From Escherichia coli (GTDB lineage Bacteria; Pseudomonadota; Gammaproteobacteria; Enterobacterales; Enterobacteriaceae), in the NCBI RefSeq assembly GCF_013122565.1, contig NZ_CP053258.1: 64,000 bases of DNA, one strand, 5' to 3'. The translations under genes and the position numbers were made by a program. How positions within the stretch are numbered: position 1 is the stretch's first letter; each line of letters starts with the position of its first letter. Positions 5,291-53,984 of the stretch are shown here, piece by piece. The notes beneath the pieces were generated by a model. It saw nothing but the letters and a program-made list of their open reading frames with translations. It did no database searches and was not told the DNA's origin.

Positions 5291-5320
5291 CAAGCTGTTC
5301 AAGCTGTTCAAGCTGTTCAG
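5291..5320. repeat. Tandem repeat, 3.3 copies of the 9-bp unit CAAGCTGTT
   Basis: caagctgtt caagctgtt caagctgtt cag read directly in the AT-rich spacer. Confidence 0.9.
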
Positions 5321-5657
5321 CGGCGTAAGAGAAAGTATTGAGTATGAATTCGACGATTTAACCATATCTGTTTGATTGGTAATCATCCGTGATTAATGCT
5401 GGTCTATTGATTACGCCAGCATTAACCGCTTAGGGATGTATTCTTCCTGTTCATATACAGCCCTCGAAAAAGAGAGCAAATAAAACTGTGTCCAATATTA
5501 CTCTACCACTCCAGACCGAAGTATCGGTAGAATTAGCAGAACGGCTGGTACAGTAGATTGGGATAGCGTCATTTGTCAGGCATTCCATTGCCATAATAAT
5601 AATTATGAATCAATAGACGTGCTTCTTGATCATGTCTTAAAAATTATACCACGAGCC

Positions 5658-10727: not shown

Positions 10728-11050
10728 CCTTCTGGTATTACAGGCCACTCAATATCCGGTGCTACTGATGGCTCAACACGATTCAACAACATCCGATATG
10801 TCTTCCATGCGGCCATTCAACATTTCGCAGAAATGCAACTAAGAGACATTACTGAATCAAAAATTTATTCAGCAATGCAGAAAATGACGAACCGGCGTCA
10901 TGAGGAAAACTGGAAACTCAGGGCAGAAGCATGCAGAAAAAAGGGAAACCTGTTCCAGAATACACGCCAAACCCAGCGTCTGTTGCAACGAAGGCTACGC
11001 ATCTTTCATTTATAAAAGCCCTGCTAAGAGCCGCAGAGCGTGAATAGAAA

Positions 11051-11718
11051 ATGCTGGATAAGGCACCAATTATTAAAGTGCCTCAACCGAAGAATAAACG
11101 GATCCGCTGGCTGGAACCTCATGAAGCACAAAGGCTGATTGATGAATGTCCGGATCCATTAAAGTCTGTTGTTGAATTTGCACTGGCAACAGGTTTAAGA
11201 CGCTCGAACATCATCAACCTTGAATGGCAACAAATAGACATGCAGCGCCGGGTGGCCTGGATAAACCCGGAAGAGAGTAAATCAAACTGCGCGATTTGCG
11301 TTGCGCTGAATGATACTGCATGTCGAGTATTGAAAAAACAAATCGGGAATCACACCGTTGGGTATTTGTGTAAAAGGAAAGCTGTACAAAACCAGACGGA
11401 ACGAAAGCGCCAACAGTCAGGAAGATGCAGTATGACGCAAACACAGCCAGGAAAACGGCGCTGAGACGAGCTGGTATTGATGATTTCAGATTTCACGACT
11501 TGAGACACACCTGGGCAAGTTGGCTGGTTCAAGCCGGAGTCCCGTTGTCAGTGTTACAGGAAATGGGAGGCTGGGAGTCTATCGAAATGGTTCGACAATA
11601 TGCTCACCTCGCACCTAATCACCTTACCGAACACGCACGGCAAATAGACTCGATCCTAAACCCATCGGTCCCAAATTTGTCCCAGTCAAAAAATAAGGAA
11701 GGTACTAACGATGTGTAA
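11051..11718 (+). pseudogene. Tyrosine-recombinase (phage integrase) remnant: catalytic C-terminal half only, with a frameshift near 11425-11464
   Basis: Two overlapping frames (11051..11464 and 11425..11718) together give an integrase catalytic domain ([19 protein letters not shown]...; [39 protein letters not shown]); N-terminal ~200 aa absent; ends 15 bp from the tRNA 3' end in convergent orientation. Confidence 0.7.
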
Positions 11719-33423: not shown

Positions 33424-33576
33424 GTTATTAACCTCCTAAAGCCTGGCGATAACACGATAATTTGCAAATCAGATATTTCCAATATCAGCATTTGTTATCA
33501 ATTTATTCTGCGCTAAGGCAACTGCCTGATAAGGTGTTAAAGTTATAAAACCCTTCGCATAAAGGAGTTGTACACC

Positions 33577-34347
33577 GTGCCTGGTTTGAAGATTACGCTT
33601 TTGCAGCAACCACTGGTGTGGATGGATGGTCCTGCCAACCTGCGCCATTTTGATCGTCAACTGGAAGGTATTACCGGGCGCGATGTGATCGTTCTACCGG
33701 AGATGTTTACCAGCGGCTTTGCCATGGAAGCGGCAGCTTCGTCGCTAGCACAAGATGACGTAGTGAACTGGATGACAGCTAAGGCGCAGCAGTGCAATGC
33801 GCTGATTGCAGGCAGTGTTGCATTACAAACGGAGTCTGGTTCGGTTAACCGCTTTTTGCTGGTTGAGCCGGGCGGCACGGTACATTTTTATGATAAGCGT
33901 CATCTGTTCCGCATGGCAGATGAGCATCTACATTATAAAGCGGGCAATGCGCGAGTGATTGTGGAATGGCGCGGCTGGCGTATTTTGCCGTTGGTGTGCT
34001 ACGACTTACGTTTTCCGGTGTGGTCGCGCAATCTCAACGATTATGACCTCGCCATCTACGTTGCCAACTGGCCTGCTCCGCGCTCTCTGCACTGGCAGGC
34101 CTTGCTGACAGCCCGCGCGATTGAGAATCAGGCGTATGTGGCGGGATGCAATCGCGTCGGCAGCGATGGCAACGGCTGCCATTATCGCGGTGACAGCCGG
34201 GTGATTAACCCGCAGGGCGAGATTATCGCTACTGCCGACGCGCATCAGGCAACACGCATTGATGCGGAGCTGTCGATGGTGGCATTGCGGGAATATAGAG
34301 AAAAGTTTCCGGCATGGCGGGATGCGGATGAGTTTAGGTTGTGGTGA
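33577..34347 (+). CDS. yafV: Carbon-nitrogen hydrolase (omega-amidase, nitrilase superfamily) YafV, GTG start
   Basis: 256 aa; E-K-C catalytic triad context (LPEMF..., HYDKRHLF, VCYDLRFP); AAGGAG RBS 9 nt upstream of GTG. Confidence 0.9.
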   Translation: MPGLKITLLQQPLVWMDGPANLRHFDRQLEGITGRDVIVLPEMFTSGFAMEAAASSLAQDDVVNWMTAKAQQCNALIAGSVALQTESGSVNRFLLVEPGGTVHFYDKRHLFRMADEHLHYKAGNARVIVEWRGWRILPLVCYDLRFPVWSRNLNDYDLAIYVANWPAPRSLHWQALLTARAIENQAYVAGCNRVGSDGNGCHYRGDSRVINPQGEIIATADAHQATRIDAELSMVALREYREKFPAWRDADEFRLW

Positions 34348-34449
34348 GTGGGTGTTGTGTTTAAGGCCGGGGAAGACTACGAAAGCCCCTAACTTAAACA
34401 CAATATTACGCCAGAAGTCACCATTTCCAAAACACAGCGCCGCTGTACC

Positions 34450-34683
34450 GTGGGTTATCTGCCCAACCGCAGCGACACGCCGGTGATCAAAATCAGCGCC
34501 AAATGGCTGAGAGAAGCGGGATTTGCGATCGGCACGGGCGTTACCGTGAGGATCTCGGAAGGCTGCCTGATCCTGCTTGCGGATAACAACGAAGTACAGG
34601 AACTGCGCAGGGAACTTTATCAGGTTAAACAGTCAGTTAAGGGGATGCGTGACGGGATGTTTAGTGTGCTGAACGAGAGTTAA
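34450..34683 (+). CDS. SymE-like (AbrB/SpoVT-fold) toxin-family protein, short form (77 aa, GTG start); possibly an N-terminally shortened remnant
   Basis: PVIKISAKWLREAGFAIGTGVTVRISEGCLILLADN resembles the core of K-12 SymE ([34 protein letters not shown], from memory); followed by an imperfect hairpin at 34690-34725. Confidence 0.5.
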   Translation: MGYLPNRSDTPVIKISAKWLREAGFAIGTGVTVRISEGCLILLADNNEVQELRRELYQVKQSVKGMRDGMFSVLNES

Positions 34684-34729
34684 ATAATAAAAAGCCGGGA
34701 AGATTTTATTTCCTACCCGGCTTTTAACA

Positions 34730-35179
34730 TTAATGCTTCAAGGGGAATGACTTCATCAGTAATTCTTCTAAAGAAGAATATAAAAATTCCATTTCATAAG
34801 AGTCATGCAGAAAAACAAATATCTTACCATCTGTATTCATAAGAATAGGGTTTCCGCAGCCATCATCTGAAATAGCATAAAATGAATTCAATATATTTTT
34901 ATCAAGATCTTTATATATTTCCCTAAACTTCAGAGTAAGATCAACTACAGAAGCCTTTCCTACTAAGGAACCATTTTTAAAGGCATGTATAGCTATGCCA
35001 CCAAAGGCCCCACCAAATTTCTTAATAAACTCAATATATTGTATATTGAATTTAATATTTAATATTTTTTCAGCCTGAATGATCTCCTCATCAGAAGCTG
35101 GTATACCATATAGGACCATATCTTGGTCAGATGTTATCTCATCTCTGACTCTTGCTAGCAATTCTTCATTCATACGCAA
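34730..35179 (-). CDS. Predicted immunity protein for orphan toxin 4 (SMI1/KNR4, SUKH-like)
   Basis: 149 aa, AT-rich, directly downstream of an rhs C-terminal toxin module; IQYIEFIKKFGGAFGG motif typical of SUKH immunity proteins. Confidence 0.6.
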   Translation of the reverse strand: MRMNEELLARVRDEITSDQDMVLYGIPASDEEIIQAEKILNIKFNIQYIEFIKKFGGAFGGIAIHAFKNGSLVGKASVVDLTLKFREIYKDLDKNILNSFYAISDDGCGNPILMNTDGKIFVFLHDSYEMEFLYSSLEELLMKSFPLKH

Positions 35180-36297
35180 CCGCCCCCTCTATTGCTTAAA
35201 ACTTTTTCAGCTTGTGATTTCCAGAATTCTTTTTTCCACAGGTTAAATTCTTGACGATTATTTATACCTGAACCTTTTTTATTTCCATTTGGGTGCTGAC
35301 CAGCGTTATTTGTACTTGAACCATGATGTTTATCTGGCATAGCAGTAATTGGCCCTTGTGATTGCTGCCTGTCATGGTGCAATACTATTACATTCCCTTG
35401 CCTATCGCTCGGAGATAAACCAAATGGATGAGGAGCATCATCACTGTTCATAAAAATAATTCTATTAAGCTCGGAATCACTTAAGTGACTTAAATCCGTG
35501 TAACCTGATACATCTAAAGTTAATCCTCTGCTATCAGTAAAAGTAACAGTTAAACCCAGAGGATCGATCCAACTTATTGGATTAGGCGCATATTGGTATA
35601 AGTTTATCCCACCCGCCAGCCCTATCGGGTCCTGACTGATAAACCTCCCGCACTCCGGCGCATAATACCTGAACAGATTGTAATGCAGTCCCGTCTCTTC
35701 ATCATAATACTGCCCCGGCAGCCGCAGCGGTTGCTCAAAGTACGCCCCGCTGTTGCTGATGTCGCCCCGGTTTTCACCAAATCCCGCCTGATAGCCCGCC
35801 CACACCAGCGTCCCGTCCGCCGCGGTCACCTCCTGTACCGTGCCCGTCAGGTCCGTGTGGTAATACCAGATTTTTTGACTCTCTCCGCGCCCGGTGATGG
35901 CGGCCACCGGCGTGTACGGCTGTTCCGCGTCGTACAGGTATGTCCGCTTTCCCTGCCACGTTGTCTCCTGCAACAGCCGGAACCCTTCCCACACAAACGT
36001 TGTCCGGCTTCGTTCTCCCCGGTCGGTATGGAGATTGCTGGTCGCCTTGCTGATGCGCCTGCCCAGCGCATCATACTGATACCGCGTCTCGCTGTTGCTG
36101 CTGATGACCCGCGTTAACTGACCCTGCGCGTTCCACTCCAGCTGTTGGTCCCTGCGCTCTGTCAGTTCGCCCCATTCGTTATAGCGGTAACGGTCACGCC
36201 CGTAGCCCGGCAGGCGGTTATCCGGCACCGCTCCCTGATGCTCATCCGTCAGCAGGTTGCCCGCTTTGTCGTAATAATAATGGTCATGGTCGTACAT
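35170..36297 (-). CDS. Orphan rhs C-terminal toxin module 4: 5'-truncated Rhs core (to DPLGL) plus LHH/HNH-like nuclease-type tip
   Basis: Rhs core homology from about 36345 down to the DPxGL motif, then a divergent ~125-aa tip containing VIVLHHDRQ...KHHG...N...H (HNH/LHH-like). Confidence 0.65.
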   Translation of the reverse strand: MYDHDHYYYDKAGNLLTDEHQGAVPDNRLPGYGRDRYRYNEWGELTERRDQQLEWNAQGQLTRVISSNSETRYQYDALGRRISKATSNLHTDRGERSRTTFVWEGFRLLQETTWQGKRTYLYDAEQPYTPVAAITGRGESQKIWYYHTDLTGTVQEVTAADGTLVWAGYQAGFGENRGDISNSGAYFEQPLRLPGQYYDEETGLHYNLFRYYAPECGRFISQDPIGLAGGINLYQYAPNPISWIDPLGLTVTFTDSRGLTLDVSGYTDLSHLSDSELNRIIFMNSDDAPHPFGLSPSDRQGNVIVLHHDRQQSQGPITAMPDKHHGSSTNNAGQHPNGNKKGSGINNRQEFNLWKKEFWKSQAEKVLSNRGGGCV

Positions 36298-36376
36298 CTG
36301 CCCCGTGCGACTGGTCAGCCAGCCGCTGCGATCATACGCAAAATGCCCCCATCCGCATGCAAGCAGTATTTATCCT

Positions 36377-36682
36377 TTAGGAAAAGAGATTTATAGCTTT
36401 CTCTTGAAGTTCTATACCTATATCCTCAAGTTTGATCAGCTCGTCCTTACTGTACATTCCCTCCCGAAAAGAAAACATTCCATATACATCCATTAGTGCC
36501 AATCCTAAAACTTTTGGAACCATAATTTCATCAGCATATATTTCCGCCAAAAAATCCAGCGCCTTATATAATTCTTCAATTTCATTATCAAAAAAATCTT
36601 TCTTGAGTCTTAATCTAACAGGTATTGAATCATCTCCTAATAATTTATCGACCACTATTTTCAATGCAATCTCTTTATCCAT
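36377..36682 (-). CDS. Predicted immunity protein for orphan toxin 3
   Basis: 101 aa, AT-rich, immediately downstream of orphan module 3. Confidence 0.55.
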   Translation of the reverse strand: MDKEIALKIVVDKLLGDDSIPVRLRLKKDFFDNEIEELYKALDFLAEIYADEIMVPKVLGLALMDVYGMFSFREGMYSKDELIKLEDIGIELQEKAINLFS

Positions 36683-36698
36683 ATATCATTTCCTGTCT

Positions 36699-38315
36699 TT
36701 AACAAGATCTAATAGCATTTGATGGGACATGGCCTTCCACAAGTACTTCTCCAGAACTAACTGCATAGTTACGGGCTGGTCCTTTTAATCCAGCATCCGT
36801 TGCTTTCTCTACCGTGGATAAGTCAATAATATTCCGATTACCTTTAACATCAGGAATAACATCGTCAGTATCAAATGTAACTGTAGTTTGGCCTGGTTCA
36901 CGGTATCGTACTGCTACATATTCATTTACGGTAGTTGAAATGAATTGTGAGCCTTTAAACGAATCATTACTACCATTTCTAACATGACCAGCAGCGCTCA
37001 TTCCTCGCCCCGGGTTCTTTGCAGATAGCCCCTCACTAATAGATTCATCCGCACGAATATTTCGAAATACCTTGATTAAGCCAAGAGGATCAATCCAGCT
37101 AATCGGATTCGGCGCATACCTGTAAAGATTCAGACCGCCACGGATCGAAATCGGATCCTGACTGATAAACCTCCCGCACTCCGGCGCATAATACCTGAAC
37201 AGATTGTAATGCAGCCCCGTCTCTTCATCATAATACTGCCCCGGCAGCCGCAGTGGTTGCTCAAAGTACGCCCCGCTGTTGCTGATGTCGCCCCGGTTTT
37301 CGCCAAATCCCGCCTGGTAGCCCGCCCACACCAGCGTCCCGTCCGGCGCGGTCACCTCCTGTACCGTGCCCGTCAGGTCCGTGTGGTAATACCAGATTTT
37401 TTGACTCTCTCCGCGCCCCGTGATGGCTGCCACCGGCGTGTACGGCTGTTCCGCGTCGTACAGGTATGTCCGCTTCCCCTGCCACGTTGTCTCCTGTAAC
37501 AGCCGGAACCCTTCCCACACAAACGTCGTCTGCCGCTGTTCCCTCTGGTCCGTATGGCGGCCATATGTCGCCTTGCTGATGCGCCTGCCCAGCGCATCAT
37601 ACTGATACCGCGTCTCGCTGTTGCTGCTGATGACCCGCGTTAACTGGCCCTGCGCGTTCCACTCCAGTTGCTGGTCCCTGCGCTCTGTCAGTTCGCCCCA
37701 TTCGTTATAGCGGTAGCGGTCACGCCCGTAGCCCGGCAGGCGGTTATCCGGCACCGCTCCCTGATGCTCATCCGTCAGCAGATTGCCCGCTTTGTCGTAA
37801 TAATAATGGTCATGGTCGTACATCTGACCCGTGCGACTGGTCAGCCAGCCGCTGCGGTCATAGCTGAACACCAGGCAACCGCGCAGTTTGTCATTGATGC
37901 CGCCGACTTCACCGTCTGCGTTCCAGATATAATCCCGCGCTGTCACGCTGTCTTTCTGCGCCGGGGGGTTACCGGCCTGCTGCGGATTCTGGCTGCCGCC
38001 TGGCAGGCTGCGCTGCCAGCTTAACCGGTTATCGGCGTTGTAGCCGCTGAACGTCGCCAGTTTCCCCTGGGTGCGCATCACCTGACGGTGCAGGCTGTCA
38101 CGCTCATATTCACTGACCGTGATACCGTCCAGTGCCGTCTGGAGCAGATGCCCGCTGCCGTAGTAAAGATGGCTGAGATGCTGCCCGTCCGGCAGGGTAA
38201 TGCCGGTGGGATTGCCCAGCGCGTCACGCTGATATTTTATGCTGCCGTGCACGCTGTGCTCTGCCGTCAGCCAGCCGCTGCGGTCATACGCAAAACGCAC
38301 CGTGTCCGCCTGCAA
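36699..38315 (-). CDS. Orphan rhs C-terminal toxin module 3: 5'-truncated Rhs core plus unique ~125-aa tip (possible ADP-ribosyltransferase-like R/STT motifs)
   Basis: Starts inside the rhs core ([17 protein letters not shown]...), ends DPLGL + IKVFRNIRADESISEGL...GSQFISTTVNEY.... Confidence 0.65.
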   Translation of the reverse strand: MQADTVRFAYDRSGWLTAEHSVHGSIKYQRDALGNPTGITLPDGQHLSHLYYGSGHLLQTALDGITVSEYERDSLHRQVMRTQGKLATFSGYNADNRLSWQRSLPGGSQNPQQAGNPPAQKDSVTARDYIWNADGEVGGINDKLRGCLVFSYDRSGWLTSRTGQMYDHDHYYYDKAGNLLTDEHQGAVPDNRLPGYGRDRYRYNEWGELTERRDQQLEWNAQGQLTRVISSNSETRYQYDALGRRISKATYGRHTDQREQRQTTFVWEGFRLLQETTWQGKRTYLYDAEQPYTPVAAITGRGESQKIWYYHTDLTGTVQEVTAPDGTLVWAGYQAGFGENRGDISNSGAYFEQPLRLPGQYYDEETGLHYNLFRYYAPECGRFISQDPISIRGGLNLYRYAPNPISWIDPLGLIKVFRNIRADESISEGLSAKNPGRGMSAAGHVRNGSNDSFKGSQFISTTVNEYVAVRYREPGQTTVTFDTDDVIPDVKGNRNIIDLSTVEKATDAGLKGPARNYAVSSGEVLVEGHVPSNAIRSC

Positions 38316-38488
38316 CTAGCTGTTCAGATGGTGAATTTAACTACACCTTCTGGTTATCACCGTATTCAAGTGCCGCGATGCAACTACTGGGAAACTACAC
38401 TCATTCTCTTATTATTTTTAGAAATTTTCATCTATTAAATAATACACATGACCGATATTATTTAACCCTGCTGGGTATAACTGAAAAA

Positions 38489-39340
38489 TTATTTATTTTT
38501 AATTAAATTCATTAAATCCCAAACATTGCTATCATAATGATTGAAACCTTGAATCACAAGATAAGACAATGCTTTCATATCCAACAAAAATCTGATTTTC
38601 CCGTCTATAATTTTTGTATTTTCCGTTATAAACAATCGTTCCAATTTAACAAGATTACTTATTTTAGCTACGCTTGGAATATCACCCATTTTTGAAAAAG
38701 ATATTTTTTTAATTGAAGGTAATTTACTTACATCTTCAATGATTGACACTGCCATTTTTTTGCATAAAGATAAAGACACTTCTTCTATATTTTTCAAACC
38801 ATCTAAAAAAGTCGTGTCCGAAGCCTTAGATAATCCAGATAACTTGATGCTCCTTAAAGTCTTGATAGATGATAAATTAGGGATTGTTTGAATATTGCTA
38901 TTTTTTATCTCTAATGATTGCAAGAATGATCTCCCCGCAACATGCTCTTTTTTTTCTTTAAAATCTATCAATGTTATTTTTTCCAGAGTTCTGTGATTAA
39001 ACAAATTATCAATTCCATTTCGACCTATTAATACAGCCTCTTTTAAAAATGGGAAATATGATAAATCAAGTCTCATTTTATCATCATTCAAAAGATGGAT
39101 GAGTTGTATTTTTTTCAACGAATACAGTTGTGATATATCCTTTATTTTATTGCCTGTGATATATATTTCATTAATGAAATTAATTTCATCAAGAAATGAT
39201 AAATCAGTTATAAGCGGTGACAAAACCAACCCGTTAACTTTCTTTTCCTTCATCGTGTCAACAATATGACTTGTATCGTCATGCTTTTCATACACAAGGA
39301 CACGACTTCCCCGTACACCATAATTTTCCACTAGTCTCAT
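38489..39340 (-). CDS. Leucine-rich-repeat protein (283 aa), positioned as the immunity gene of orphan toxin 2
   Basis: AT-rich; repeated L..L..L.L..N.I LRR-like units (LSFLDEINFINEIYITGNKIKDISQLYSLKKIQLIHLLND..., IQTIPNLSSIKTLRSIKLSGL); 20 bp downstream of orphan module 2. Confidence 0.55.
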   Translation of the reverse strand: MRLVENYGVRGSRVLVYEKHDDTSHIVDTMKEKKVNGLVLSPLITDLSFLDEINFINEIYITGNKIKDISQLYSLKKIQLIHLLNDDKMRLDLSYFPFLKEAVLIGRNGIDNLFNHRTLEKITLIDFKEKKEHVAGRSFLQSLEIKNSNIQTIPNLSSIKTLRSIKLSGLSKASDTTFLDGLKNIEEVSLSLCKKMAVSIIEDVSKLPSIKKISFSKMGDIPSVAKISNLVKLERLFITENTKIIDGKIRFLLDMKALSYLVIQGFNHYDSNVWDLMNLIKNK

Positions 39341-39359
39341 ATATTTCCCCTTAAATAAA

Positions 39360-40820
39360 TCAACACTCCCCCTTCACTCTAAAATCTTGATCTGAAACAT
39401 TTCCTGTATTTGGTGGTCGTTTTTCATTACTGGTTACTCCTCTTCCTCCATTTTTAGCTATTTTCATTGCCTCTAAATTATTTAGCCATTGTTTACTAAT
39501 TCCAGCATATTTATCAAAATTCAACGAATCCAACATTGCCTGAGTTAACTTTCCACTTCGGGCATGTTGCAACATTCTCTGATATAGATTTTTTGTTTGA
39601 CCTGCATACATTTTACCCGCACCTTCATCAAAAAACTCATAAATTGCTTGCCCTTTATATTTTGCAGTAACATCTCTTATTTGTTCTAAAAAATCACTAG
39701 CGAGTCTTACTAATCCCCAAGGATCAATCCACCTCAGCGGATTCGGCGCATACCTGTAAAGATTCAGCCCACCCCGGATCGAAATCGGGTCCTGGCTTAT
39801 GAACCTTCCGCACTCCGGCGCATAATACCTGAACAGATTGTAATGCAGCCCCGTCTCTTCATCATAATACTGCCCCGGCAGCCGCAGCGGTTGCTCAAAG
39901 TACGCCCCGCTGTTGCTGATGTCGCCCCGATTTTCTCCAAATCCCGCCTGGTAGCCCGCCCACACCAGCCTCCCGTCCGGCGCGGTCACCTCCTGTACCG
40001 TGCCCGTCAGGTCCGTGTGGTAATACCAGATTTTTTGACTCTCTCCGCGCCCGGTGATGGCCGCCACTGGCGTGTACGGCTGTTCCGCGTCGTACAGGTA
40101 TGTCCGCTTTCCCTGCCACGTTGTCTCCTGCAACAGCCGGAACCCTTCCCACACAAACGTCGTCCGCCGCTGTTCCCTCTGGACCGTATGGCGGCCATAT
40201 GTCGCCTTGCTGATGCGCCTGCCCAGCGCATCATACTGATACCGCGTCTCGCTGTTGCTGCTGATGACCCGCGTTAACTGGCCCTGCGCGTTCCACTCCA
40301 GTTGCTGGTCCCTGCGCTCTGTCAGTTCGCCCCATTCGTTATAGCGGTAACGGTCACGCCCGTAGCCCGGCAGGCGGTTATCCATCACCGCGCTCTGATA
40401 CTCGTCCGTCAGCAGATTGCCCGCTTTGTCGTAATAATAATGGTCATGGTCGTACATCTGCCCCGTGCGGCTGGTCAGCCAGCCGCTGCGGTCATACGCA
40501 AAGCGCACCGTGTCCGCCTGCATGTGGTGCAGCCGTTCCCCTTCTTTCGTCGGGGTGAGCGTCACTTCCGTTATCTGGTCAAGACGGTTGTAGCTGAAGG
40601 TCCGTGTACTGTGCTGCGTGTCACTGCGCAACAGGCGGCCCAGCGCATCACGCTCCTGCCGCTCATTACGCCCCCCGCCTTCTGTACCCTGCGTCTGGAT
40701 GATGACCGGATACCCGCCCGCATTCAGCGCCAAATGGCTGAGAGAAGCGGGATTTGAGATCGGCACGGGCGTTACCGTGAAGATCTCGGAGGGATGTCTG
40801 ATCCTGCTTGCGGATAACAA
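39360..40820 (-). CDS. Orphan rhs C-terminal toxin module 2: 5'-truncated Rhs core with an internal deletion, plus GIY-YIG nuclease-like tip
   Basis: Core homology starts at ...[14 protein letters not shown] (40727); lacks ~130 codons between the two YDRSGWLT repeats; after DPWGL the tip reads AIYEFFDEGAGKMYAGQTKNLYQRMLQH (GIY...YIG...R...H pattern). Confidence 0.65.
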   Translation of the reverse strand: MLSASRIRHPSEIFTVTPVPISNPASLSHLALNAGGYPVIIQTQGTEGGGRNERQERDALGRLLRSDTQHSTRTFSYNRLDQITEVTLTPTKEGERLHHMQADTVRFAYDRSGWLTSRTGQMYDHDHYYYDKAGNLLTDEYQSAVMDNRLPGYGRDRYRYNEWGELTERRDQQLEWNAQGQLTRVISSNSETRYQYDALGRRISKATYGRHTVQREQRRTTFVWEGFRLLQETTWQGKRTYLYDAEQPYTPVAAITGRGESQKIWYYHTDLTGTVQEVTAPDGRLVWAGYQAGFGENRGDISNSGAYFEQPLRLPGQYYDEETGLHYNLFRYYAPECGRFISQDPISIRGGLNLYRYAPNPLRWIDPWGLVRLASDFLEQIRDVTAKYKGQAIYEFFDEGAGKMYAGQTKNLYQRMLQHARSGKLTQAMLDSLNFDKYAGISKQWLNNLEAMKIAKNGGRGVTSNEKRPPNTGNVSDQDFRVKGEC

Positions 40821-40914
40821 CGAAGTACAGGAACTGCGCAGGGAGCTTTATCAGGTTAAACAGGCAGTTAAGGGGATGCGGGACGGGATGTTTAGTGTGC
40901 TGAACGAAAGTTAA
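40728..40914 (+). pseudogene. SymE-like gene, 5'-truncated copy (3' ~190 bp plus hairpin duplicated from 34497-34725)
   Basis: ...SAKWLREAGFEIGTGVTVKISEGCLILLADNNEVQELRRELYQVKQAVKGMRDGMFSVLNES nearly identical to the 34450 copy; upstream part of the track ORF is antisense rhs sequence; perfect hairpin at 40923-40955. Confidence 0.55.
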
Positions 40915-40975
40915 ATAATAAAAAAGCCGGGAAGGTAAATAAGCTTCCCGGCTTTCCACAACAATTTTAACTTAA

Positions 40976-41464
40976 TTAATCATAAGCATCGCCGTAATTT
41001 TCATATTTCCAATAAATATATTTACCACCTGAGCTATATAATTTATGCAATAATTCTGTAAAAGTCATTGCAATAATTGGACAACTACCTACAACGCCAT
41101 GTATCTCATAATTGCTATCATAACAGCGTCCATTTCTTTCTGTAGAAAAATCAATGGATAAATAATCATTATTATCGGTCCTGCAAATTAAGTACCATGA
41201 AGATGATATATCATCCTCACATGGCTCACCAACTATAAATTTATTTGCCTGTAATATTTCATTATTTTTCAAAATAGTGAAGGAGATTTCCTGCTCTTCA
41301 GAGCAAAACAATTTTATTCCATTACATATTTTGTAAAAACGAACAACATCATCAGGATATTTTAAATAATCAGATGGTAATAAAGGCAAATTACCATCTG
41401 GTGGAATAACTTCACATCTGTTATCATTTTTTATCAAGTCAAGTAATTCATCAATGCCATTCAT
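40976..41464 (-). CDS. Predicted immunity protein for orphan toxin 1
   Basis: 162 aa, AT-rich, immediately downstream of orphan module 1. Confidence 0.55.
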   Translation of the reverse strand: MNGIDELLDLIKNDNRCEVIPPDGNLPLLPSDYLKYPDDVVRFYKICNGIKLFCSEEQEISFTILKNNEILQANKFIVGEPCEDDISSSWYLICRTDNNDYLSIDFSTERNGRCYDSNYEIHGVVGSCPIIAMTFTELLHKLYSSGGKYIYWKYENYGDAYD

Positions 41465-41473
41465 ATTACCACC

Positions 41474-43312
41474 TTAAAAAATAACAGTATCAAACTTCCC
41501 AGAGTATATAAACTGGTTCAATGCCCGGTAATATGCTTCCCTACTGGCAACAGGAACATTTGCGGCATCAAACATTCGTTCAGTAAGATCTTTCATTTCT
41601 CTGCTACTTACTGTTGTCCAATCCACTTTCCCACCAACTCTTCTTCCGGTTTTCTGCTCTAACCAATCTCTATATACTTTTTTTGTTGCAGCATGATTAG
41701 CCTCGGATAATGCAATTGTTGGTGACTTTGAAGGATATTTCCCTCCATAAGATGGCACATTCTTAGACATCCAAATATCAAGCACACCATGATGGTTTTC
41801 TAAAGAGGAATTAATTGGTCGATAAGGAACAACATCAAACTCTTTAACTTCACCGCACTTAAGTCCAAGGGGATCTATCCACCCCAGCGGATTCGGCGCA
41901 TAAGCATACTGGTTCAGCCCACCCGCCAGCCCTATCGGGTCCTGGCTTACGAACCGCCCGCACTCCGGCGCATAATACCTGAACAGATTATAGTGCAGCC
42001 CCGTCTCTTCATCATAATACTGCCCCGGCAGCCGCAGCGGCTGTTCAAAGTACGCCCCGCTGTTGCTGATATCGCCCCGGTTTTCGCCAAATCCCGCCTG
42101 GTAGCCCGCCCACACCAGCGTCCCGTCCGCCGCGGTCACCTCCTGTACCGTGCCCGTCAGGTCCGTGTGGTAATACCAGATTTTTTGACTCTCTCCGCGC
42201 CCCGTGATGGCGGCCACCGGCGTGTACGGCTGTTCCGCGTCGTACAGGTATGTCCGCTTTCCCTGCCACGTTGTCTCCTGCAACAGCCGGAACCCTTCCC
42301 ACACAAACGTTGTCCGGCTTCGTTCTCCCCGGTCCGTATGGCGGCCATATGTCGCCTTGCTGATGCGCCTGCCCAGCGCATCATACTGATACCGCGTCTC
42401 GCTGTTGCTGCTGATGACCCGCGTTAACTGGCCCTGCGCGTTCCACTCCAGCTGCTGGTCCCTGCGCTCTGTCAGTTCGCCCCATTCGTTATAGCGGTAG
42501 CGGTCACGCCCGTAGCCCGGCAGGCGGTTATCCATCACCGCTCCCTGATATTCATCCGTCAGCAGGTTGCCCGCTTTATCGTAATAATAATGGTCATGGT
42601 CATACATCTGCCCCGTGCGGCTGGTCAGCCAGCCGCTGCGGTCATAGCTGAACACCAGGCAACCGCGCAGTTTGTCATTGATGCCGCCGACTTCACCGTC
42701 TGCGTTCCAGATATAGTCCCGCGCTGTCACGCTGTCGCTGTGTGACGGGGGTGTGGCTGTCTGCTGTGGGTTCTGGCTGCCGCCTGGCAGGCTGCGCTGC
42801 CAGCTTAACCGGTTGTCGGCGTTGTAGCCGCTGAACGTCGCCAGTTTCCCCTGGGTGCGCATCACCTGACGGTGCAGACTGTCACGCTCATATTCACTGA
42901 CCGTGATACCGTCCAGTGCCGTCTGGAGCAGATGTCCGCTGCCGTAGTAAAGATGGCTGAGGTGCTGCCCGTTCGGTAACGTGATGTCGGTGGGATTGCC
43001 CAGCGCGTCACGCTGATATTTTATGCTGCCGTGCACGCTGTGCTCTGCCGTCAGCCACCCGCTGCGGTCATACGCAAAGCGCACCGTGTCCGCCTGCATG
43101 TGGTGCAGCCGTTCCCCTTCTTTCGTCGGGGTGAGCGTCACTTCCGTTATCTGGTCAAGACGGTTGTAGCTGAAGGTCCGTGTACTGTGCTGCGTGTCAC
43201 TGCGCAACAGGCGGCCCAGCGCATCACGCTCCTGTCGCTCATTACGCACCCCGCCTTCTGTACCCTGCGTCTGGATGATGACCGGATACCCGCCCGCATT
43301 CAGCACAAACAT
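41474..43312 (-). CDS. Orphan rhs C-terminal toxin module 1: 5'-truncated Rhs core (~1.6 kb retained, homology up to ~43468) plus unique ~130-aa tip
   Basis: Core identical in register to the main rhs from ...[12 protein letters not shown] to DPLGL; tip KCGEVKEFDVVPYRPINSSLENHHGVLDIWMSK... (possible xHH nuclease-like motif, weak). Confidence 0.65.
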   Translation of the reverse strand: MFVLNAGGYPVIIQTQGTEGGVRNERQERDALGRLLRSDTQHSTRTFSYNRLDQITEVTLTPTKEGERLHHMQADTVRFAYDRSGWLTAEHSVHGSIKYQRDALGNPTDITLPNGQHLSHLYYGSGHLLQTALDGITVSEYERDSLHRQVMRTQGKLATFSGYNADNRLSWQRSLPGGSQNPQQTATPPSHSDSVTARDYIWNADGEVGGINDKLRGCLVFSYDRSGWLTSRTGQMYDHDHYYYDKAGNLLTDEYQGAVMDNRLPGYGRDRYRYNEWGELTERRDQQLEWNAQGQLTRVISSNSETRYQYDALGRRISKATYGRHTDRGERSRTTFVWEGFRLLQETTWQGKRTYLYDAEQPYTPVAAITGRGESQKIWYYHTDLTGTVQEVTAADGTLVWAGYQAGFGENRGDISNSGAYFEQPLRLPGQYYDEETGLHYNLFRYYAPECGRFVSQDPIGLAGGLNQYAYAPNPLGWIDPLGLKCGEVKEFDVVPYRPINSSLENHHGVLDIWMSKNVPSYGGKYPSKSPTIALSEANHAATKKVYRDWLEQKTGRRVGGKVDWTTVSSREMKDLTERMFDAANVPVASREAYYRALNQFIYSGKFDTVIF

Positions 43313-43517
43313 CCGTATCAGACCGTCCGGGCGCTGTTCTCCCGTCAGCCGTCCGTCCGCATCGTGACTGAACCGGTAAAGCGCTCCGTTGCCGTTGCTC
43401 AGACTGGCAATCCATCCCTCCGCGGTATAATGCCAGCGCGTCTCCCGTTTCTCTTCATCCGTGTGGCACGCCAGTTAACATACGTCTACTGACAAAACCA
43501 TTAGTCCAAACAAAATC

Positions 43518-48474
<4,957 letters not shown>

Positions 48475-48497: not shown

Positions 48498-50711
48498 TTA
48501 TTCAGAAACGTCCGGGGTAGGTAACGGGGCAATATCATCCGCAGTCATGGCTGTGCCGCCATCCGGATTCATATCAATGCCACTGCCAATGAGTTGCATA
48601 ACATCGCTGGTGTGCAGTAAAAGTTGTTTTCCGCAAAACTCAATCGAGCCATCCTTGTGTAATACAAGCGCTGCATTGCCGCAACGAAGGGTAAATTGAT
48701 CGCCAACATCCAGACGATATGTCGTTCCGACATTGATGGTTTGAGCCAGTTTGACGGAAAGACCATCATTTTTTGTGATGGTGGCATTACGGTCTTCTCC
48801 CACGCTGATGGTTTCATTTTTGACAATGGTTTTTATGCGATCGACCATGACCGTGTGGGTTTCATTGTTTTTTACCGTGGTATTGAGGTCTTTTTCCGCA
48901 TGGAACTTCACCTCTTCTGCCCCCGTTTTATCGTCAAAGCGCAGCATGTTTCCGTTGGTCGGCCCGCCATACAGCGAGTGGCTGAATATCCCGCTCTGCG
49001 AGGCCATACCCGGCAGTCCCCACGGCGGCATGGTGTCCTGGTTATAGGTGCGCCCTACAATGATCGGTAAATCCGGGTCGCCGTTTTTGAAATCCACCAG
49101 CACTTCCTGACCGATGCGCGGGATCTGGATCATGCCGAATCCTTTCCCTGCCCACGGATAGCTGACGCGGATCCAGCAGGAGCTGTTTTCGTCATTATTA
49201 CCGTAACGATCCCAGCCAAACTGCACCTTCACCCGTCCATATTTGTCCGTCCAGATTTCCTGCCCCGCCGGGCCGGTGACGATGGCGCTCTGCGGGCCTT
49301 TGGTGTGGGGTTTGCTCAGGGTTCGCTGTGGGCGGTAAACTTCGCTGGTTGGGTGCAGTTCAAACGTGGTGACATAGGTAAAATGCTGATCCTGGCCGCT
49401 GTGCTGCGCATTGTCCCGTAAAAACAGCGTGGTCTGTACCAGCAGGTATTCCTGATTAATTTCTGCCGTCGGGTGATTCATCAATGTAAAGGTGTACCCG
49501 GTCATGAGGGTACGGATATGACCGGCCCCATGTGCCCGGCTGCCTGGGCTACGCTGCGCTTCCATACGAATACGCGTCAACATCTCGCCTTCGCCCGTAG
49601 TGAAGTAATCACCAGGCCATTCGTAATGCTCGTATTCAGCATGACCGGTATCACGCGGACTGGCCACGGTACTTTTAAGCAGCGAACGAGGCTTCATAAA
49701 ATCAAAATCGTCCATCACCCACTTTCCAGTACGCAGCCTCTCACTGGCCGTAATGGTGTGAATAAATTCCTTATCCAGTTTCAGCCCTTCCTGGTGCCAC
49801 TCCACCAGTGGCGAGTCAGGGCACGCTTTATGACCATTGATGGCATCCGCCAGCACCAGCGTGTGGCTGTTCTCGCTGTGCTCAAACCACCAGTAAATTC
49901 CCCACTCCTGCATCAGGCGCTGGATGAAATCAAAATCCGTTTCACCGTACTGTACCTGCCAGGCACGAGGTGGATAATTTTCCACCAGCCGTTTTTCCAC
50001 CGGAAAGGAATATTCATCCAGTACTTCATCGAGAATATCCACCACGGTTTTATTCTGGAACGCTTTGTAGTCGCTGGTGTGGGTCAGCAGTTTCAGCCAC
50101 GGTTCAATGCGTAATTCATACGTTACCGAGCGGCCCTCATGGCCCACCACCCGCGCCGCTGTCACCAGCCCGCTGATATGCCGTTTGCCGCCGCCGTCCA
50201 GTTCGATATTGACGCACAGATCTTTGCCCACCATGGGCTGAAGCGGCAGGTTAGCAGCGGGGGAAACGTACCCCAGGTTCAGGGCGTCCGGCGTTTTAAG
50301 CTGTACTGTGTAGGAAAACAGATTCCCAAGCCCTTCCGAACCATTCATGCCTGCAAACAAAAGCATCTGCGGCGGCACCGCACTACCACTTACTGTGACG
50401 TTATGCGCCCCCGGACCACCTGCAGCAAGCGACGCCGCCGCATCCTGAACTGCACCAGCCATATCCGATATCCCTGCTGCGGCGGCTGCGGCTTGCGCAG
50501 CAGCTACTGCGGCTTTAACCAGACCTGACGGTTCCGGCAACGCACCAAACAGGTCCGCCGCTGCCTGTTCTACCATCTGCTCGGCTGCATCAGCTACATC
50601 GGTTGCGGCTGAACCAGGGCTTATACCACCACTTTCGCCAGCTATTGGTGGTGTGGTGATGACGGGTCCACCGTTTCCAACTGGTTTATTACCCGTAGAT
50701 ACAAAACTCAT
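48498..50711 (-). CDS. vgrG: T6SS spike protein VgrG (737 aa as the longest ORF, includes a ~100-aa Ala/Gly-rich N-terminal extension; true start uncertain)
   Basis: gp27/gp5-like VgrG body ([25 protein letters not shown]..., C-terminal ...[19 protein letters not shown]...); N-terminal [22 protein letters not shown]...[10 protein letters not shown] segment precedes the conserved start of the VgrG fold. Confidence 0.85.
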
Positions 50712-50735: not shown

Positions 50736-51122
50736 TTAAAATCTAGCCCCTGGTGGCCAAAAAATATAAGTAATAACTCTCCATTGCCCGTCTTTATAAT
50801 GAAACCAACATGTCAGATTCAAATCCCCCTGCAAATTCCAGAACATTTCCTTAATAGGAACATCTTGAAATTCAGGATCTGTTATGCGATAAGTTTGATT
50901 CAAGCCGATATAATACTCACCAACAAATTTATATCGTGGCCTCACGAACTCATGAGCAGGCGGCCCATATTTTTTCATAAAAAAGATGTCATTACTTCCA
51001 TCATGTATATCATTTTCTTCATAATATTTGGTGGATTGAGCAACTGCAGAAGGCTTGAAAACATTCACTGTAGTTATGTAAGTTATTGAAAGAAAAATCA
51101 CTATAATGCAGAAAAATTTCAT
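50736..51122 (-). CDS. Predicted periplasmic immunity protein 1 (signal peptide; paralogue of 52819..53181)
   Basis: 128 aa, MKFFCIIVIFLSITYITTVNVF... signal peptide; shares ...EFQDVPIKEMFWN..DLNLTCW.HYK.GQW.VI...WPPG..F with the paralogue; 4-nt overlap with upstream effector gene. Confidence 0.6.
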   Translation of the reverse strand: MKFFCIIVIFLSITYITTVNVFKPSAVAQSTKYYEENDIHDGSNDIFFMKKYGPPAHEFVRPRYKFVGEYYIGLNQTYRITDPEFQDVPIKEMFWNLQGDLNLTCWFHYKDGQWRVITYIFWPPGARF

Positions 51123-51820
51123 TTGGTTACATTCAATAAAGTAAATTTAGTTTCAGGCATTATGACATTCAACGTTATAGTTGCGTTTTTAAGGTATCGT
51201 TCCCGAAGCTCCATTCCCACATTCATCAACCCACTAATATCTCCAACATACGGAGACGAAGAATCATAATCATCATCTAAGTAACCAAGTACATGTCCGG
51301 CTTCATGAGGTATATTTACTTGCAACGTATTGTTACAGTTAATACATTTCGCTACTTTTTCCAGGTCCGCTGAATCAACATGAACCGTACTGTTTTTAAA
51401 ATCAACATATGTTCTTAAATCAGCACCAGGCAAAACCTTTGTTGCAATAACCAACCAGTCTTCATTCTGAGATGCAGAAATTATTCTTACATCAAAAGGC
51501 AAAGCTTTACCCTGAAATTTTTTAGCGAACTCAGATTCACCGGAAACAGAATAAGTTATTTTCCCATTCCATGCCTGCTGAACAGATAAATATATCGCTC
51601 GCATAAAAATAGCTTTTTCCCATATAGTCCAGTCATCTGTAACGGTATTATCCTTATACCACTCATACTTCCATCTTATCACAGCCGTAATCGAACCAGT
51701 ATTTTGATTTAATAAATACGTCCTCCTACCATCCTTATGTATAATGATATCGCCATCAATATTTGTTTTTTCATAGTATTCGGCCAGCAAACTATTCTCA
51801 TCATATTTAAGCTTGGTCAT
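51119..51820 (-). CDS. Candidate T6SS effector 1: HExxH zinc-metallopeptidase-like protein (233 aa)
   Basis: HEAGHVLGY motif plus conserved block LMNVGMELRERYL shared with the 268-aa paralogue; AT-rich; no signal peptide; followed by a signal-peptide protein. Confidence 0.6.
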   Translation of the reverse strand: MTKLKYDENSLLAEYYEKTNIDGDIIIHKDGRRTYLLNQNTGSITAVIRWKYEWYKDNTVTDDWTIWEKAIFMRAIYLSVQQAWNGKITYSVSGESEFAKKFQGKALPFDVRIISASQNEDWLVIATKVLPGADLRTYVDFKNSTVHVDSADLEKVAKCINCNNTLQVNIPHEAGHVLGYLDDDYDSSSPYVGDISGLMNVGMELRERYLKNATITLNVIMPETKFTLLNVTK

Positions 51821-52032
51821 TTTACTCTCATTAAATAATAATTATTTGTATCGAAAATATTATTTTATATATTACGAGTATTGCCCCTTCAGCCGCAGCG
51901 CATCCACATACCGTCCTTCACTGCAGGGCAAGATTACGAAAGCCCGCCCCCCGCAAGGACTGACGCGAGGTAGTTTCTGTCCATGGCTGCTTTTCTCATC
52001 TTACGTCTTAACCCTGCCTTGGTTTCGCCGTA

Positions 52033-52794
52033 CTACACCTGCCAGGCGCGGGGGGGATAATTTTCCACCAGCCGTTTTTCCACCGGAAAGGAATATTCAT
52101 CCAGTACTTCATCGAGAATATCCACCACGGTTTTATTCTGGAATGCTTTGTAGTCGCTGGTATGGGTCAGCAGCTTCAGCCATGGCTCAATGCGTAATTC
52201 ATACGTTACCGAACGGCCCTCATGGCCGACCACCCTCGCCGCCGTCACCAGCCCGCTGATATACCGTTTTCCGCCACCGTCCAGTTCAATGTTGACGCAC
52301 AGGTCTTTGCCCACCATGGGCTGAAGCGGCAGGTTAGCAGCGGGGGAAACGTACCCCAGGTTCAGGGCGTCCGGCGTTTTAAGCTGTACTGTGTAGGAAA
52401 ACAGATTCCCAAGCCCTTCCGAACCATTCATGCCTGCAAACAAAAGCAGCTGCGGCGGCACCGCACTACCACTTACTGTGACGTTATGCGCCCCCGGTCC
52501 ACCGGCAGCAATCGACGCCGCCGCATCCTGAACTGCACCAGCCATATCCGATATCCCTGCTGCGGCGGCTGCGGCTTGCGCAGCAGCTACTGCGGCTTTA
52601 ACCAGACCTGACGGTTCCGGCAACGCACCAAACAGGTCCGCCGCTGCCTGTTCTACCATCTGCTCGGCTGCATCAGCGACATCGGTTGCGGCTGAACCAG
52701 GGCTTATACCACCACTTTCGCCAGCTATTGGTGGTGTGGTGATGACGGGTCCACCGTTTCCAACTGGTTTATTACCCGTAGATACAAAACTCAT
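52033..52794 (-). pseudogene. vgrG: vgrG 5' fragment (N-terminal ~255 codons duplicated; body replaced)
   Basis: Near-identical to the first ~780 bp of vgrG at 49935-50711, including the Ala-rich N-terminal segment; homology breaks near 52017-52036. Confidence 0.75.
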
Positions 52795-52818
52795 GATATT
52801 TGCTCCTTTAATACCGGA

Positions 52819-53181
52819 TTAAAATTTGGATCCTGGCGGCCAATAAACTCGGGATATAACTATCCATTTACCATTTTTATAATGAAGCCAACATGTTAAA
52901 TTTAGATCTTTATTAACATTCCAAAACATCTCCTTAATAGGAACATCTTTAAATTCAGGATTATTTGAAGGGTAAGTCCGTTCTATGCCACCATAATAAA
53001 TACCTACAAAATCATGCCTTGGGTTTATAAAATAATGTTCAGGAGAACCATATTTTCTCACTAGTGAATCTTCATCATCCCCCCACTGAACATCTTTGTT
53101 ATGCATCTCACTGGCAAAAATATCTAGAGTTACAAGCAATATCAATAACGTAAAAAATAGAGCGATTTTCTTCTGGATCAT
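52819..53181 (-). CDS. Predicted periplasmic immunity protein 2 (signal peptide; paralogue of 50736..51122)
   Basis: 120 aa, MIQKKIALFFTLLILLVTLDIFA signal peptide; conserved C-terminal block with paralogue. Confidence 0.6.
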   Translation of the reverse strand: MIQKKIALFFTLLILLVTLDIFASEMHNKDVQWGDDEDSLVRKYGSPEHYFINPRHDFVGIYYGGIERTYPSNNPEFKDVPIKEMFWNVNKDLNLTCWLHYKNGKWIVISRVYWPPGSKF

Positions 53182-53984
53182 TTTATTACACTCGCAACAG
53201 AAAACGTAGTTAAGGGATATACTAAATTCAAGTCAATACAGACACCTTCCAGGTAGCGTTCCCGAAGTTCCATCCCAACATTCATTAACGCGGCAGTATC
53301 TATTTTATATTTAGACACAGGCTTACCAAACTTATCAAGTTCATATTCATCCTCCAGATAACGAATCATATGTCCAATTTCATGAACTATATTTACCTGA
53401 TAAAAACCACATATTGACTGATTCTCTGGAGCACATTTTTCTGATAACGAAGTATCTTTAAAATAAAAATGAGCAAACCGATTTTTCCAGTTAACATAAG
53501 GCCTGCCATCATCATTACCAGGAACGGTTCTTAATACGTCTACATTCCAGTGTTCTTTTTGATGGACCGGAATCATATTTATGCTGAAAGGCAATCTTTT
53601 ACTCTTGAATTTCTCAGCAAAATCAGAGTCCCCTGAGACAGATAAAAATATCTTATCATTCCATCCATAACAGATTGCAGAAAATGATTCATATATAAAA
53701 CTAACTTCATCCAGGTATGTCCAGTTATCTCCTACATTGTTCTGATTCACCCAGTTAAATTTCCATCTCATTAATAATGCAATGTCGCCTGTATCACTAT
53801 TCAGGATATATTCGCCATGTTCTGTATTCATCCTGAGACACTTCCCATCTTCTACGGTGTCAGGGCAAAACTTATGCATGAGTTTAATAAAGAATTCATG
53901 CGATAGATTTATTTTACTCTCTCCAACAACACCATCTACATGTGTTGTGAGCGAACCAGATTTATTCCCTGAAGAAGAACTCAT
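53178..53984 (-). CDS. Candidate T6SS effector 2: HExxH zinc-metallopeptidase-like protein (268 aa)
   Basis: HEIGHMIRY motif and LMNVGMELRERYL block; first ~10 codons and the 25 bp upstream resemble the vgrG 5' end (MSSSSGNKSGS vs [11 protein letters not shown]). Confidence 0.6.
   Translation of the reverse strand: MSSSSGNKSGSLTTHVDGVVGESKINLSHEFFIKLMHKFCPDTVEDGKCLRMNTEHGEYILNSDTGDIALLMRWKFNWVNQNNVGDNWTYLDEVSFIYESFSAICYGWNDKIFLSVSGDSDFAEKFKSKRLPFSINMIPVHQKEHWNVDVLRTVPGNDDGRPYVNWKNRFAHFYFKDTSLSEKCAPENQSICGFYQVNIVHEIGHMIRYLEDEYELDKFGKPVSKYKIDTAALMNVGMELRERYLEGVCIDLNLVYPLTTFSVASVIK

Follow-up and report, generated by a model that had tools for sequence, protein, structure and literature searches.

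The 64,000-nucleotide (nt) stretch of Escherichia coli DNA analysed here (the window; contig NZ_CP053258.1 of RefSeq assembly GCF_013122565.1) contains the effector end of type VI secretion system 1 (T6SS-1), which adjoins yafV-ivy-fadE, as judged by synteny with annotated E. coli genomes. At this locus, one full-length rhs gene (the main gene) is followed by four 5′-truncated rhs copies (orphans 1 to 4), each ending in a toxin tip of its own and each followed by a small AT-rich open reading frame (ORF). The first-pass annotation of this DNA had read the array as four orphan toxin/immunity modules with different retained core lengths, which agrees with the definition of orphan rhs-CT/rhsI (C-terminal toxin tip and immunity) modules given in Poole 2011 (PMC3150448), where such modules are described as widening the toxin repertoire. 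We consider it very probable that the locus as a whole comprises one deliverable Rhs protein and four such modules, which together form a recombination reservoir. What was observed directly is how the array is built, that its copies are collinear and where their junctions lie, which domains they contain and which modules occur in other strains as well.

Read along the minus strand, in the direction of falling coordinates, the locus runs through vgrG, a DcrB-related/Eag-type gene and rhs into a repeat series. A pattern of GC-rich core end, AT-rich tip and AT-rich small ORF occurs five times, ending at 34730, and the GC content alternates accordingly, at about 0.60 in the core copies against 0.26-0.38 where tips and small ORFs lie.

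Four orphan copies are collinear with the core of the main rhs gene

The main rhs gene (48010..43871, minus strand) was compared with the DNA downstream of it by blastn; "main nt" refers to the nucleotide numbering along the main gene. All four orphans aligned to the main core without gaps, at 92-97% DNA identity, which bears out the collinearity that had been claimed for them.

43871..48010, minus strand: main full-length rhs, 1379 amino acids (aa); exact protein WP_250880426.1 (E. coli)
41474..43474, minus strand: orphan 1; 666 codons open from the TAA at 43477..43475, first ATG at 43312, DPLGL at 41875..41861; core, main nt 2140-3743 = window 43474..41871 (95.8%)
39360..40728, minus strand: orphan 2; core part 1, main nt 2310-2564 = window 40728..40474 (98.8%), joined to part 2, main nt 2968-3754 = window 40496..39710 (95.2%); DPWGL at 39725..39711
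36699..38315, minus strand: orphan 3; core, main nt 2516-3743 = window 38314..37087 (97.2%); DPLGL at 37091..37077
35170..36361, minus strand: orphan 4; degenerate remnant, main nt 2516-2564 = window 36361..36314 (81.6%, 1-nt indel), then core, main nt 2968-3756 = window 36336..35548 (92.1%); DPLGL at 35565..35551

In each copy, the homology to the main gene ceases at the DPxGL codons (main nt 3743-3756). The motif reads DPLGL in all copies except orphan 2, where it is DPWGL, and is followed by unrelated tips of 116-128 aa, just as the first-pass annotation had described. A collinear array with distinct tips is thus confirmed, far beyond chance.

The 5′ boundaries differ between the copies. 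The open frames begin at main residues 714, 770, 839 and about 990, leaving 263-534 codons of 3′ core, and an in-frame stop lies at, or within three codons of, the 5′ boundary of orphans 1, 3 and 4. In orphan 1, both the homology and the open frame start at 43474, immediately after the TAA and 54 codons before the ATG at 43312. The TTG start listed for orphan 2 (40820) sits in a gene of the symE family that lies antisense to it, and the 31 codons before 40728 are non-rhs. A common start of orphans 1 and 2, as previously proposed, had to be rejected: the DNA homology starts 170 nt apart (main nt 2140 and 2310), and the apparent common protein start is merely the first ATG of orphan 1 set against the true boundary of orphan 2. 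Orphan 3 starts with TTG where the main gene has its Met839 codon, with a TAG directly upstream, and the 5′ boundary of orphan 4 is the same (TTGCAGGCGGA, nt 2516), both reading TTGCA where the main gene has ATGCA.

Orphan 2 has lost exactly 426 nt (142 codons, in frame) of internal core. The deletion is flanked by 23-nt direct repeats that are identical at 22 of 23 positions and encode YDRSGWLT (main residues 848 and 990), and a single repeat remains at the junction (40496..40474). Since these direct repeats lie at the junction, a repeat-mediated origin of the deletion is supported; the earlier proposal therefore stands with respect to the deletion, its repeats and its origin, its size of about 130 codons being the part to be corrected. 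Orphan 4 carries the same YDRSGWLT deletion. It had been described as beginning at MYDHDH, but its homology begins about 40-65 nt upstream of that motif with a decayed copy of nt 2516-2541 that contains a 1-nt indel. A plain truncation at MYDHDH was rejected on these grounds, as the remnant upstream of YDRSGWLT matches nt 2516-2541 (TTTGCG) and not nt 2942-2967. Hence, orphan 4 combines the 5′ boundary of orphan 3 with the deletion of orphan 2.

The divergence between the copies is uneven. The main gene and orphan 1 have zero mismatches over nt 2200-2620, the main gene and orphan 3 have none over nt 2980-3160 and 3340-3700, and orphans 1 and 4 are identical over nt 3280-3400, whereas the same pairs show 8-24 mismatches per 60 nt elsewhere in the core. 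Such zero-mismatch tracts among diverged stretches are a signature of repeated recombination or gene conversion. The ratio of nonsynonymous to synonymous substitution rates (dN/dS) among the core copies is 0.11-0.21, which implies that the differences arose under purifying selection, in working genes, and not by decay in place.

Only the main gene has the parts needed for delivery

Two further genes precede the main gene on the same strand.

48498..50711, minus strand: vgrG, 737 aa, T6SS spike carrying the main Rhs; TIGR03361 E=2e-166, homologues named "type VI secretion system Vgr family protein"
48031..48474, minus strand: DcrB-related/Eag-type (DUF1795) chaperone gene, 147 aa; homologue named "DcrB-related protein" in all related loci

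The 147-aa protein had no NCBIfam match, and it is from its place between vgrG and the prePAAR Rhs that we take it to be a chaperone. The main Rhs consists of a prePAAR motif, hydrophobic helices, a PAAR-like region (PAAR domain E=4.7e-7, below cutoff), a YD-repeat core, DPLGL (44272..44258) and a 128-aa tip. The core was recognised through its YD repeats (TIGR01643, E=9.7e-54), the repeat-associated core model (TIGR03696, E=7.7e-25) and NF041261 RHS_core (E=4.2e-79, with a score below the equivalog cutoff), and the latter match suggests a relative of, not a member of, the classical RhsA-E core. The main gene thus shows the features of a T6SS Rhs polymorphic toxin: a YD/RHS core, DPxGL with a variable tip, and prePAAR/PAAR sequences together with vgrG and a chaperone gene. 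Its tip (43871-44257, minus strand) matches Deam_C (E=3.6e-14), with HAE and CxxC motifs visible; a sequence search of PDB with the tip gave no match.

In the orphans, by comparison, the first 713-990 residues are absent, and with them the prePAAR motif, transmembrane helices, PAAR region and front part of the Rhs shell. As they lack these N-terminal parts and have no credible start signal, they cannot load onto the secretion system alone.

Each tip is followed by a small AT-rich gene

The tips differ in their predicted activities. That of orphan 1 is a 128-aa Tox-SHH (HNH/EndoVII) domain (E=2.1e-25), whose homologues include YokI-type toxins and whose nearest relative is a partial protein of Shigella flexneri (95%). 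The tip of orphan 2 (116 aa) has a weak GIY-YIG match (E=0.0019) and a match to a group I intron endonuclease (E=0.0019), and a PDB sequence search with it found nothing. For the 125-aa tip of orphan 3, to which no activity can be assigned, there were weak matches to DUF7587 (E=0.017) and to PDB 9zdm_B, a "Probable Rhs-family protein" (E=0.002). The tip of orphan 4 is a 126-aa LHH (HNH/EndoVII) domain (E=1.4e-8).

The small ORFs that follow the tips (I0 for the main gene, I1 to I4 for the orphans) have a GC content of 29-32%, against about 60% in the core, and in each orphan the ORF lies within 0-19 nt of the stop codon of the tip.

43518..43877, minus strand: I0, presumed immunity gene of the main tip, 119 aa, 31% GC; overlaps the rhs stop
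40976..41464, minus strand: I1, SUKH/SMI1-KNR4 immunity gene, 162 aa, 30% GC; SMI1_KNR4 E=2.6e-5
38489..39340, minus strand: I2, leucine-rich-repeat (LRR) protein, presumed immunity gene, 283 aa, 29% GC; weak LRR matches; WP_171459790.1
36377..36682, minus strand: I3, presumed immunity gene, 101 aa, 32% GC; WP_171459789.1
34730..35179, minus strand: I4, SUKH/SMI1-KNR4 immunity gene; SMI1_KNR4 E=8.6e-14

The true start of I4 is likely the ATG at 35173, giving 147 aa. The exact protein of I1 is in the database as WP_171459792.1, "SMI1/KNR4 family protein"; the main Rhs and three small proteins have exact entries, all from E. coli and under generic names. The NCBIfam search with the immunity proteins returned weak LRR matches only. 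Both HNH-type tips (orphans 1 and 4) adjoin SUKH immunity proteins, and the pairing of SUKH immunity with HNH-type tips is typical of polymorphic toxin systems. Toxin activity of the tips and immunity activity of the ORFs are thus predicted from their sequences.

The first-pass annotation had named non-coding small ORFs as an outcome that would refute it; the ORFs, however, have the marks of genes. When the same DNA was shuffled 2000 times, no shuffle reached the observed open length for I0, I1, I2 or I4. The 101 codons of I3 were reached in 13 of 2000 shuffles; this ORF is 98-99.6% conserved beside the same tip in six E. coli genomes, whose annotation lists it as a 306-nt coding sequence. Together with the SUKH domains, these data uphold a small AT-rich gene after each copy.

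The modules are rare and are shared with other strains

We compared the locus with a set of 5426 complete RefSeq E. coli genomes. The flanking housekeeping genes have a best identity of 98.4% to any of them. The main tip with its downstream 119-aa ORF occurs in two genomes of the set, the module of orphan 2 in three, that of orphan 3 in six and that of orphan 4 in one (plus three at 82%). Orphan 1's tip and I1 (40976-41870) are found in none by megablast, and a protein search with the tip returned only short or partial proteins of at most 222 aa, too short to reveal any full-length carrier. Most members of the I1 cluster (90% identity) are recorded from Escherichia marmotae, unclassified Escherichia and Shigella flexneri, which points to movement of the orphan 1 module between Escherichia lineages.

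The tip of orphan 3 with I3 forms the 3′ end of a full-length VgrG-linked rhs gene in strains LHM10-1, VE-T9 and CP52E (99.6% identity). In LHM10-1, the main 3′ end, I3 and the first orphan core are collinear over 2772 nt (95.5%) with the orphan 3 tip, I3 and the orphan 4 core of the window. Hence, an orphan module here is an armed tip in other strains. The orphan 4 module is 99.9% identical in PapRG-06-5, where it is likewise an orphan copy, annotated "HNH/ENDO VII family nuclease", and the I4 homologue is annotated as a 444-nt SMI1/KNR4 gene. For orphans 2, 3 and 4, the same tip and immunity ORF co-occur in other genomes.

The stretch from the orphan 2 tip to the orphan 4 core is a single 4.2-kb block in HCP5S3_I2, and the part from the orphan 2 tip to the orphan 3 core is common to GF3-3. 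In both strains, the orphan 2 tip keeps just 81-150 nt of core, and the presence of the same tip with different core lengths across strains implies that core lengths change by recombination. I2, an intact 283-codon ORF here, is split into two or three hypothetical proteins in GF3-3 and HCP5S3_I2; the homologous stretches of I2 (at 4521-5372 of locus L002 and 10749-11600 of locus L004) are 96.6-99.3% identical.

A probable reservoir of toxin tips and its alternatives

The arrangement fits the published model of displacement and recombination of orphan rhs-CT/rhsI modules. Only the full-length prePAAR Rhs would be deliverable, riding VgrG with the Eag/DcrB-type chaperone, and it would enclose its deaminase-like tip until release at the DPxGL autocleavage site. 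Displacements, duplications and recombination events within the conserved core, one after another, would have given rise to the modules, and one of these steps would have joined a symE gene to core nt 2310 at a 5-nt microhomology. The immunity genes may protect against relatives that deploy the corresponding toxins. RecA-dependent recombination between the main and orphan cores (789-1604 bp, 92-97%) could fuse any stored tip to the main delivery part and thereby exchange the weapon of the strain, and a crossover downstream of nt 2990 would leave the shell intact, whichever of the four tips were joined to it. For this strain, we infer that the modules are expressed, that their immunity proteins protect and that tips can be switched. 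The description of the array as a reservoir of displaceable tips is supported indirectly, by the orphan 3 tip on a full-length rhs gene, by the identity tracts and by the Salmonella precedent, in which passaged cells redeploy an orphan toxin through recombination between main and orphan rhs, with 522 bp at 95% identity being sufficient (Koskiniemi 2014, PMC3967940). There, a duplication of the locus probably precedes, so that the main immunity gene is kept (PMC3967940).

Several observations weigh against this reading. No full-length rhs with the tip of orphan 1, 2 or 4 was found in the genome collection (the three 82% matches to orphan 4, at another locus, were not inspected), and a history as a displaced main tip is therefore shown for orphan 3 only. 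I0 and I3 had no family match in profile searches, and the LRR matches of I2 are weak at best. If the crossover fell within the 255-nt stretch upstream of the orphan 2 deletion, the main gene would acquire the 142-codon loss, and its shell would probably be impaired. Finally, a crude consensus scan found 17 sigma-70-like sites where 16.3 were expected in shuffled sequence, which is no overall excess, and none on the minus strand in any core copy.

The same crude scan may speak against the idea that the orphans and the main tip act mainly as chromosomal toxin-antitoxin modules, expressed from promoters and starts inside the core and independently of the T6SS. This role, which would be compatible with that of a reservoir, is unlikely as the main one. 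It draws on the internal transcription and translation reported for rhs of Salmonella Typhimurium, where main and orphan rhs alike have transcription start sites 89 nt before the PxxxxDPxGL-coding sequence and an internal CTG gives rise to toxic products (Starsta et al. 2020, PMC7043789). All four orphans keep long open frames and intact tips, and the core region before the tip is conserved in all five copies, as it would predict. However, the dN/dS well below 1 extends along the whole retained core, which exceeds what toxin-antitoxin modules would need, although it may reflect an earlier life as full-length genes. Alternatively, the array could be a defence island kept only for its immunity genes, with toxin fragments that are inert and never redeployed. 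Arrays of immunity genes left by sequential effector displacement are reported for Vibrio cholerae (PMC5361080), related E. coli keep the same tips with only 81-150 nt of core, a poor substrate for recombination, and the 5′ remnant of orphan 4 is degenerate and carries an indel. Nevertheless, retention for immunity alone fits poorly with four intact tips that are 99.3-99.9% identical to copies elsewhere, with cores that are long (0.8-1.6 kb, 92-97%) and bear zero-mismatch tracts of recent exchange with the main gene, and with the orphan 3 tip on a full-length gene in other strains; redeployment has, moreover, been observed in Salmonella (PMC3967940). On balance, we regard it as somewhat unlikely. 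There is virtually no chance that the repeated copies are an assembly artefact of collapsed or wrongly expanded repeats. The five core copies do share identical tracts of up to about 400 nt, which can confuse short-read assemblers, but every copy has its own 5′ junction, tip and polymorphisms, independent complete genomes contain blocks of several kb that span two or three of the modules, and the proteins are encoded on a 4.82-Mb contig. The copy-specific junctions and the blocks common to independent genomes rule an artefact out.

A symE-family gene marks a seam within the array and its distal end

Two features that were absent from the first-pass annotation are a truncated symE-family gene fused to orphan 2 and a full-length one that closes the array and converges on it. 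Beyond the latter follows yafV.

40729..40955, plus strand: truncated symE-family gene and hairpin terminator; last 61 of 77 codons at 40729..40914
34450..34683, plus strand: full-length symE-family gene, 77 aa, GTG start; marks the distal end of the array beside yafV
33568..34347: yafV
34420..34730 (with its surroundings, 34420-34800), minus strand: match to the 3′ half of Rfam Ssr1 (RF02627), antisense to the full symE; 292 bits, E=1.5e-85
40674..41138, minus strand: second, partial Ssr1 match, antisense to the truncated symE

The truncated gene is fused to orphan 2 at rhs nt 2310, within a TCAGC microhomology, and its 61 codons are identical, except for the last residue, to a SymE-family protein annotated in E. 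coli GF3-3. The full gene with the same terminator closes the array at 34450..34704. With NF010128 SymE, the full copy gave E=1.3e-10 (41.1 bits) and the truncated copy E=1.6e-8 (34.4 bits), against a cutoff of 132 bits, so that the two appear to be relatives of SymE only. Their homologues in GF3-3 and HCP5S3_I2 carry the PGAP name "SymE family type I addiction module toxin". In a terminator scan of the locus, counts were at or below the shuffle expectation; the symE hairpins are missed by the rules of that scan.

With a truncated symE at orphan 2 and a full symE at the end, the array consists of two symE-terminated blocks placed end to end, one with the main gene and orphan 1 and the other with orphans 2, 3 and 4. 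The junction of symE with rhs nt 2310 occurs in only 3 of the 5426 genomes (PE164, E105 and PapRG-06-5), with different tips on either side and without the deletion of orphan 2, which implies that the seam is an old, inherited join and that the deletion came later. The seam might have originated by a tandem duplication from rhs nt 2310 to symE codon 16, or imported DNA, with its anchor in symE/yafV, might have been joined by homology-facilitated illegitimate recombination; the two appear indistinguishable, since either would give exactly this structure.

As the match covers the Ssr1 model only in part, its score of 292 bits does not reach the gathering score of 820. Ssr1 is an acid-responsive small RNA of Shigella flexneri, located between the Rhs-family gene SF0268 and yafV (PMC4782007). 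The published small RNA is therefore located where the homologous rhs array ends distally, on the strand opposite to a symE-family gene. In the window, the antisense strand of the two symE copies has a weak match to isrA as well.

Related symE genes occur in other settings. In E. coli D6 (NZ_CP010148.1, 282-13842, near ybgA), symE-family genes end tandemly repeated units that contain a helix-turn-helix gene, a DNA primase, a XerC-type recombinase and three small ORFs, and in many genomes about five places match the symE sequence of the window. Genes of this family may be a general marker of where small mobile or recombining units end.

It is conceivable, though rather doubtful, that the array grows by the capture of whole blocks, besides the displacement of single tips, and that an Ssr1-like RNA couples it to symE. 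The convergent symE with its terminator would then be a recurrent right-hand homology anchor, and stretches reaching from a piece of core as far as symE would be added, either as duplicates or as imports through homology-facilitated illegitimate recombination, and then concatenated. If an Ssr1-like transcript runs from the last immunity gene into the antisense strand of symE, it could link the transcription of the array with the control of a type I toxin.

Relation to known systems

A "C-terminal displacement" model for enterobacterial rhs was reportedly put forward by Jackson et al. in 2009. The closest parallel to the locus is the main/orphan rhs pair in Salmonella pathogenicity island 6 (SPI-6) of Salmonella Typhimurium LT2 (STM0291/STM0292; PMC3967940, PMC7043789). 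There too, a full-length T6SS-linked rhs is followed by a 5′-truncated fragment that has the common core, a different tip and its own immunity gene and is without initiation and export signals. LT2 has one orphan, compared with four here, and 522 bp of homology, compared with 789-1604 bp; the nested boundaries, the shared internal deletion and the symE seam are particular to the present locus, which is known from sequence. The abrupt divergence after DPxGL and the retention of upstream rhs sequence to varying extents, in some cases with stops in frame, are also seen in rhsC of Dickeya dadantii 3937 and the orphans of Yersinia pseudotuberculosis (PMC3150448). The present array differs from these in lying at the E. 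coli T6SS-1/yafV locus and in having one boundary that is fused to a symE-family gene and not to the flank of an immunity gene.

Orphan cdiA-CT/cdiI arrays resemble the locus in their tandem tip/immunity modules behind a large delivery gene and in conserved fragments that enable recombination (PMC3150448), but they use two-partner secretion and VENN, where the present system uses the T6SS and DPxGL. In the T6SS immunity arrays of Vibrio cholerae, successive effector replacement likewise leaves the earlier immunity genes in order; it is mostly immunity genes that remain there, whereas complete tips and long core fragments remain here (PMC5361080). In summary, every feature by which a Rhs T6SS effector and an orphan module can be recognised in the DNA was found at this locus, the full-length carrier of a tip being found for orphan 3 only.

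Other features of the window

Plus-strand ORFs of 144 aa recur nearly identically within every core copy (for example at 35683..36117, 39843..40277 and 41993..42427). We rejected them as genes, as they are most likely an antisense frame of the GC-rich rhs coding DNA that is repeated only because the core is.

Upstream of the full vgrG, the region 50736-53984 (minus strand) contains a vgrG fragment, annotated in related genomes as a partial "phage late control D family protein", and ORFs without a family around it. The region suggests an analogous displaced vgrG/effector remnant.

52033..52794, minus strand: N-terminal vgrG fragment, 253 aa
53178..53984, 51119..51820 and 50736..51122, minus strand: ORFs without a family

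Significance

Conceptually, the locus is nothing new, as it is a well-known way of storing spare toxins; we know of no description of this composition or of the symE seam, which leave the concept unchanged. As an example, however, it is clear and well preserved: its boundaries are nested, two of its orphans share a repeat-mediated deletion, its conversion tracts form a mosaic and a dated seam lies at symE. It could be a test bed for rates of tip switching. Its modules are rare, each being present in 0-6 of the complete E. coli genomes, and the predominance of Escherichia marmotae and Shigella among the sources of I1 illustrates exchange across species. Such arrays decide which strains kill or resist which of their neighbours. 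Hence, the repertoire found here, with a deaminase-like main tip, two tips of the HNH type, one that is GIY-YIG-like and one of unassigned activity, matters for the competition of E. coli in the gut.

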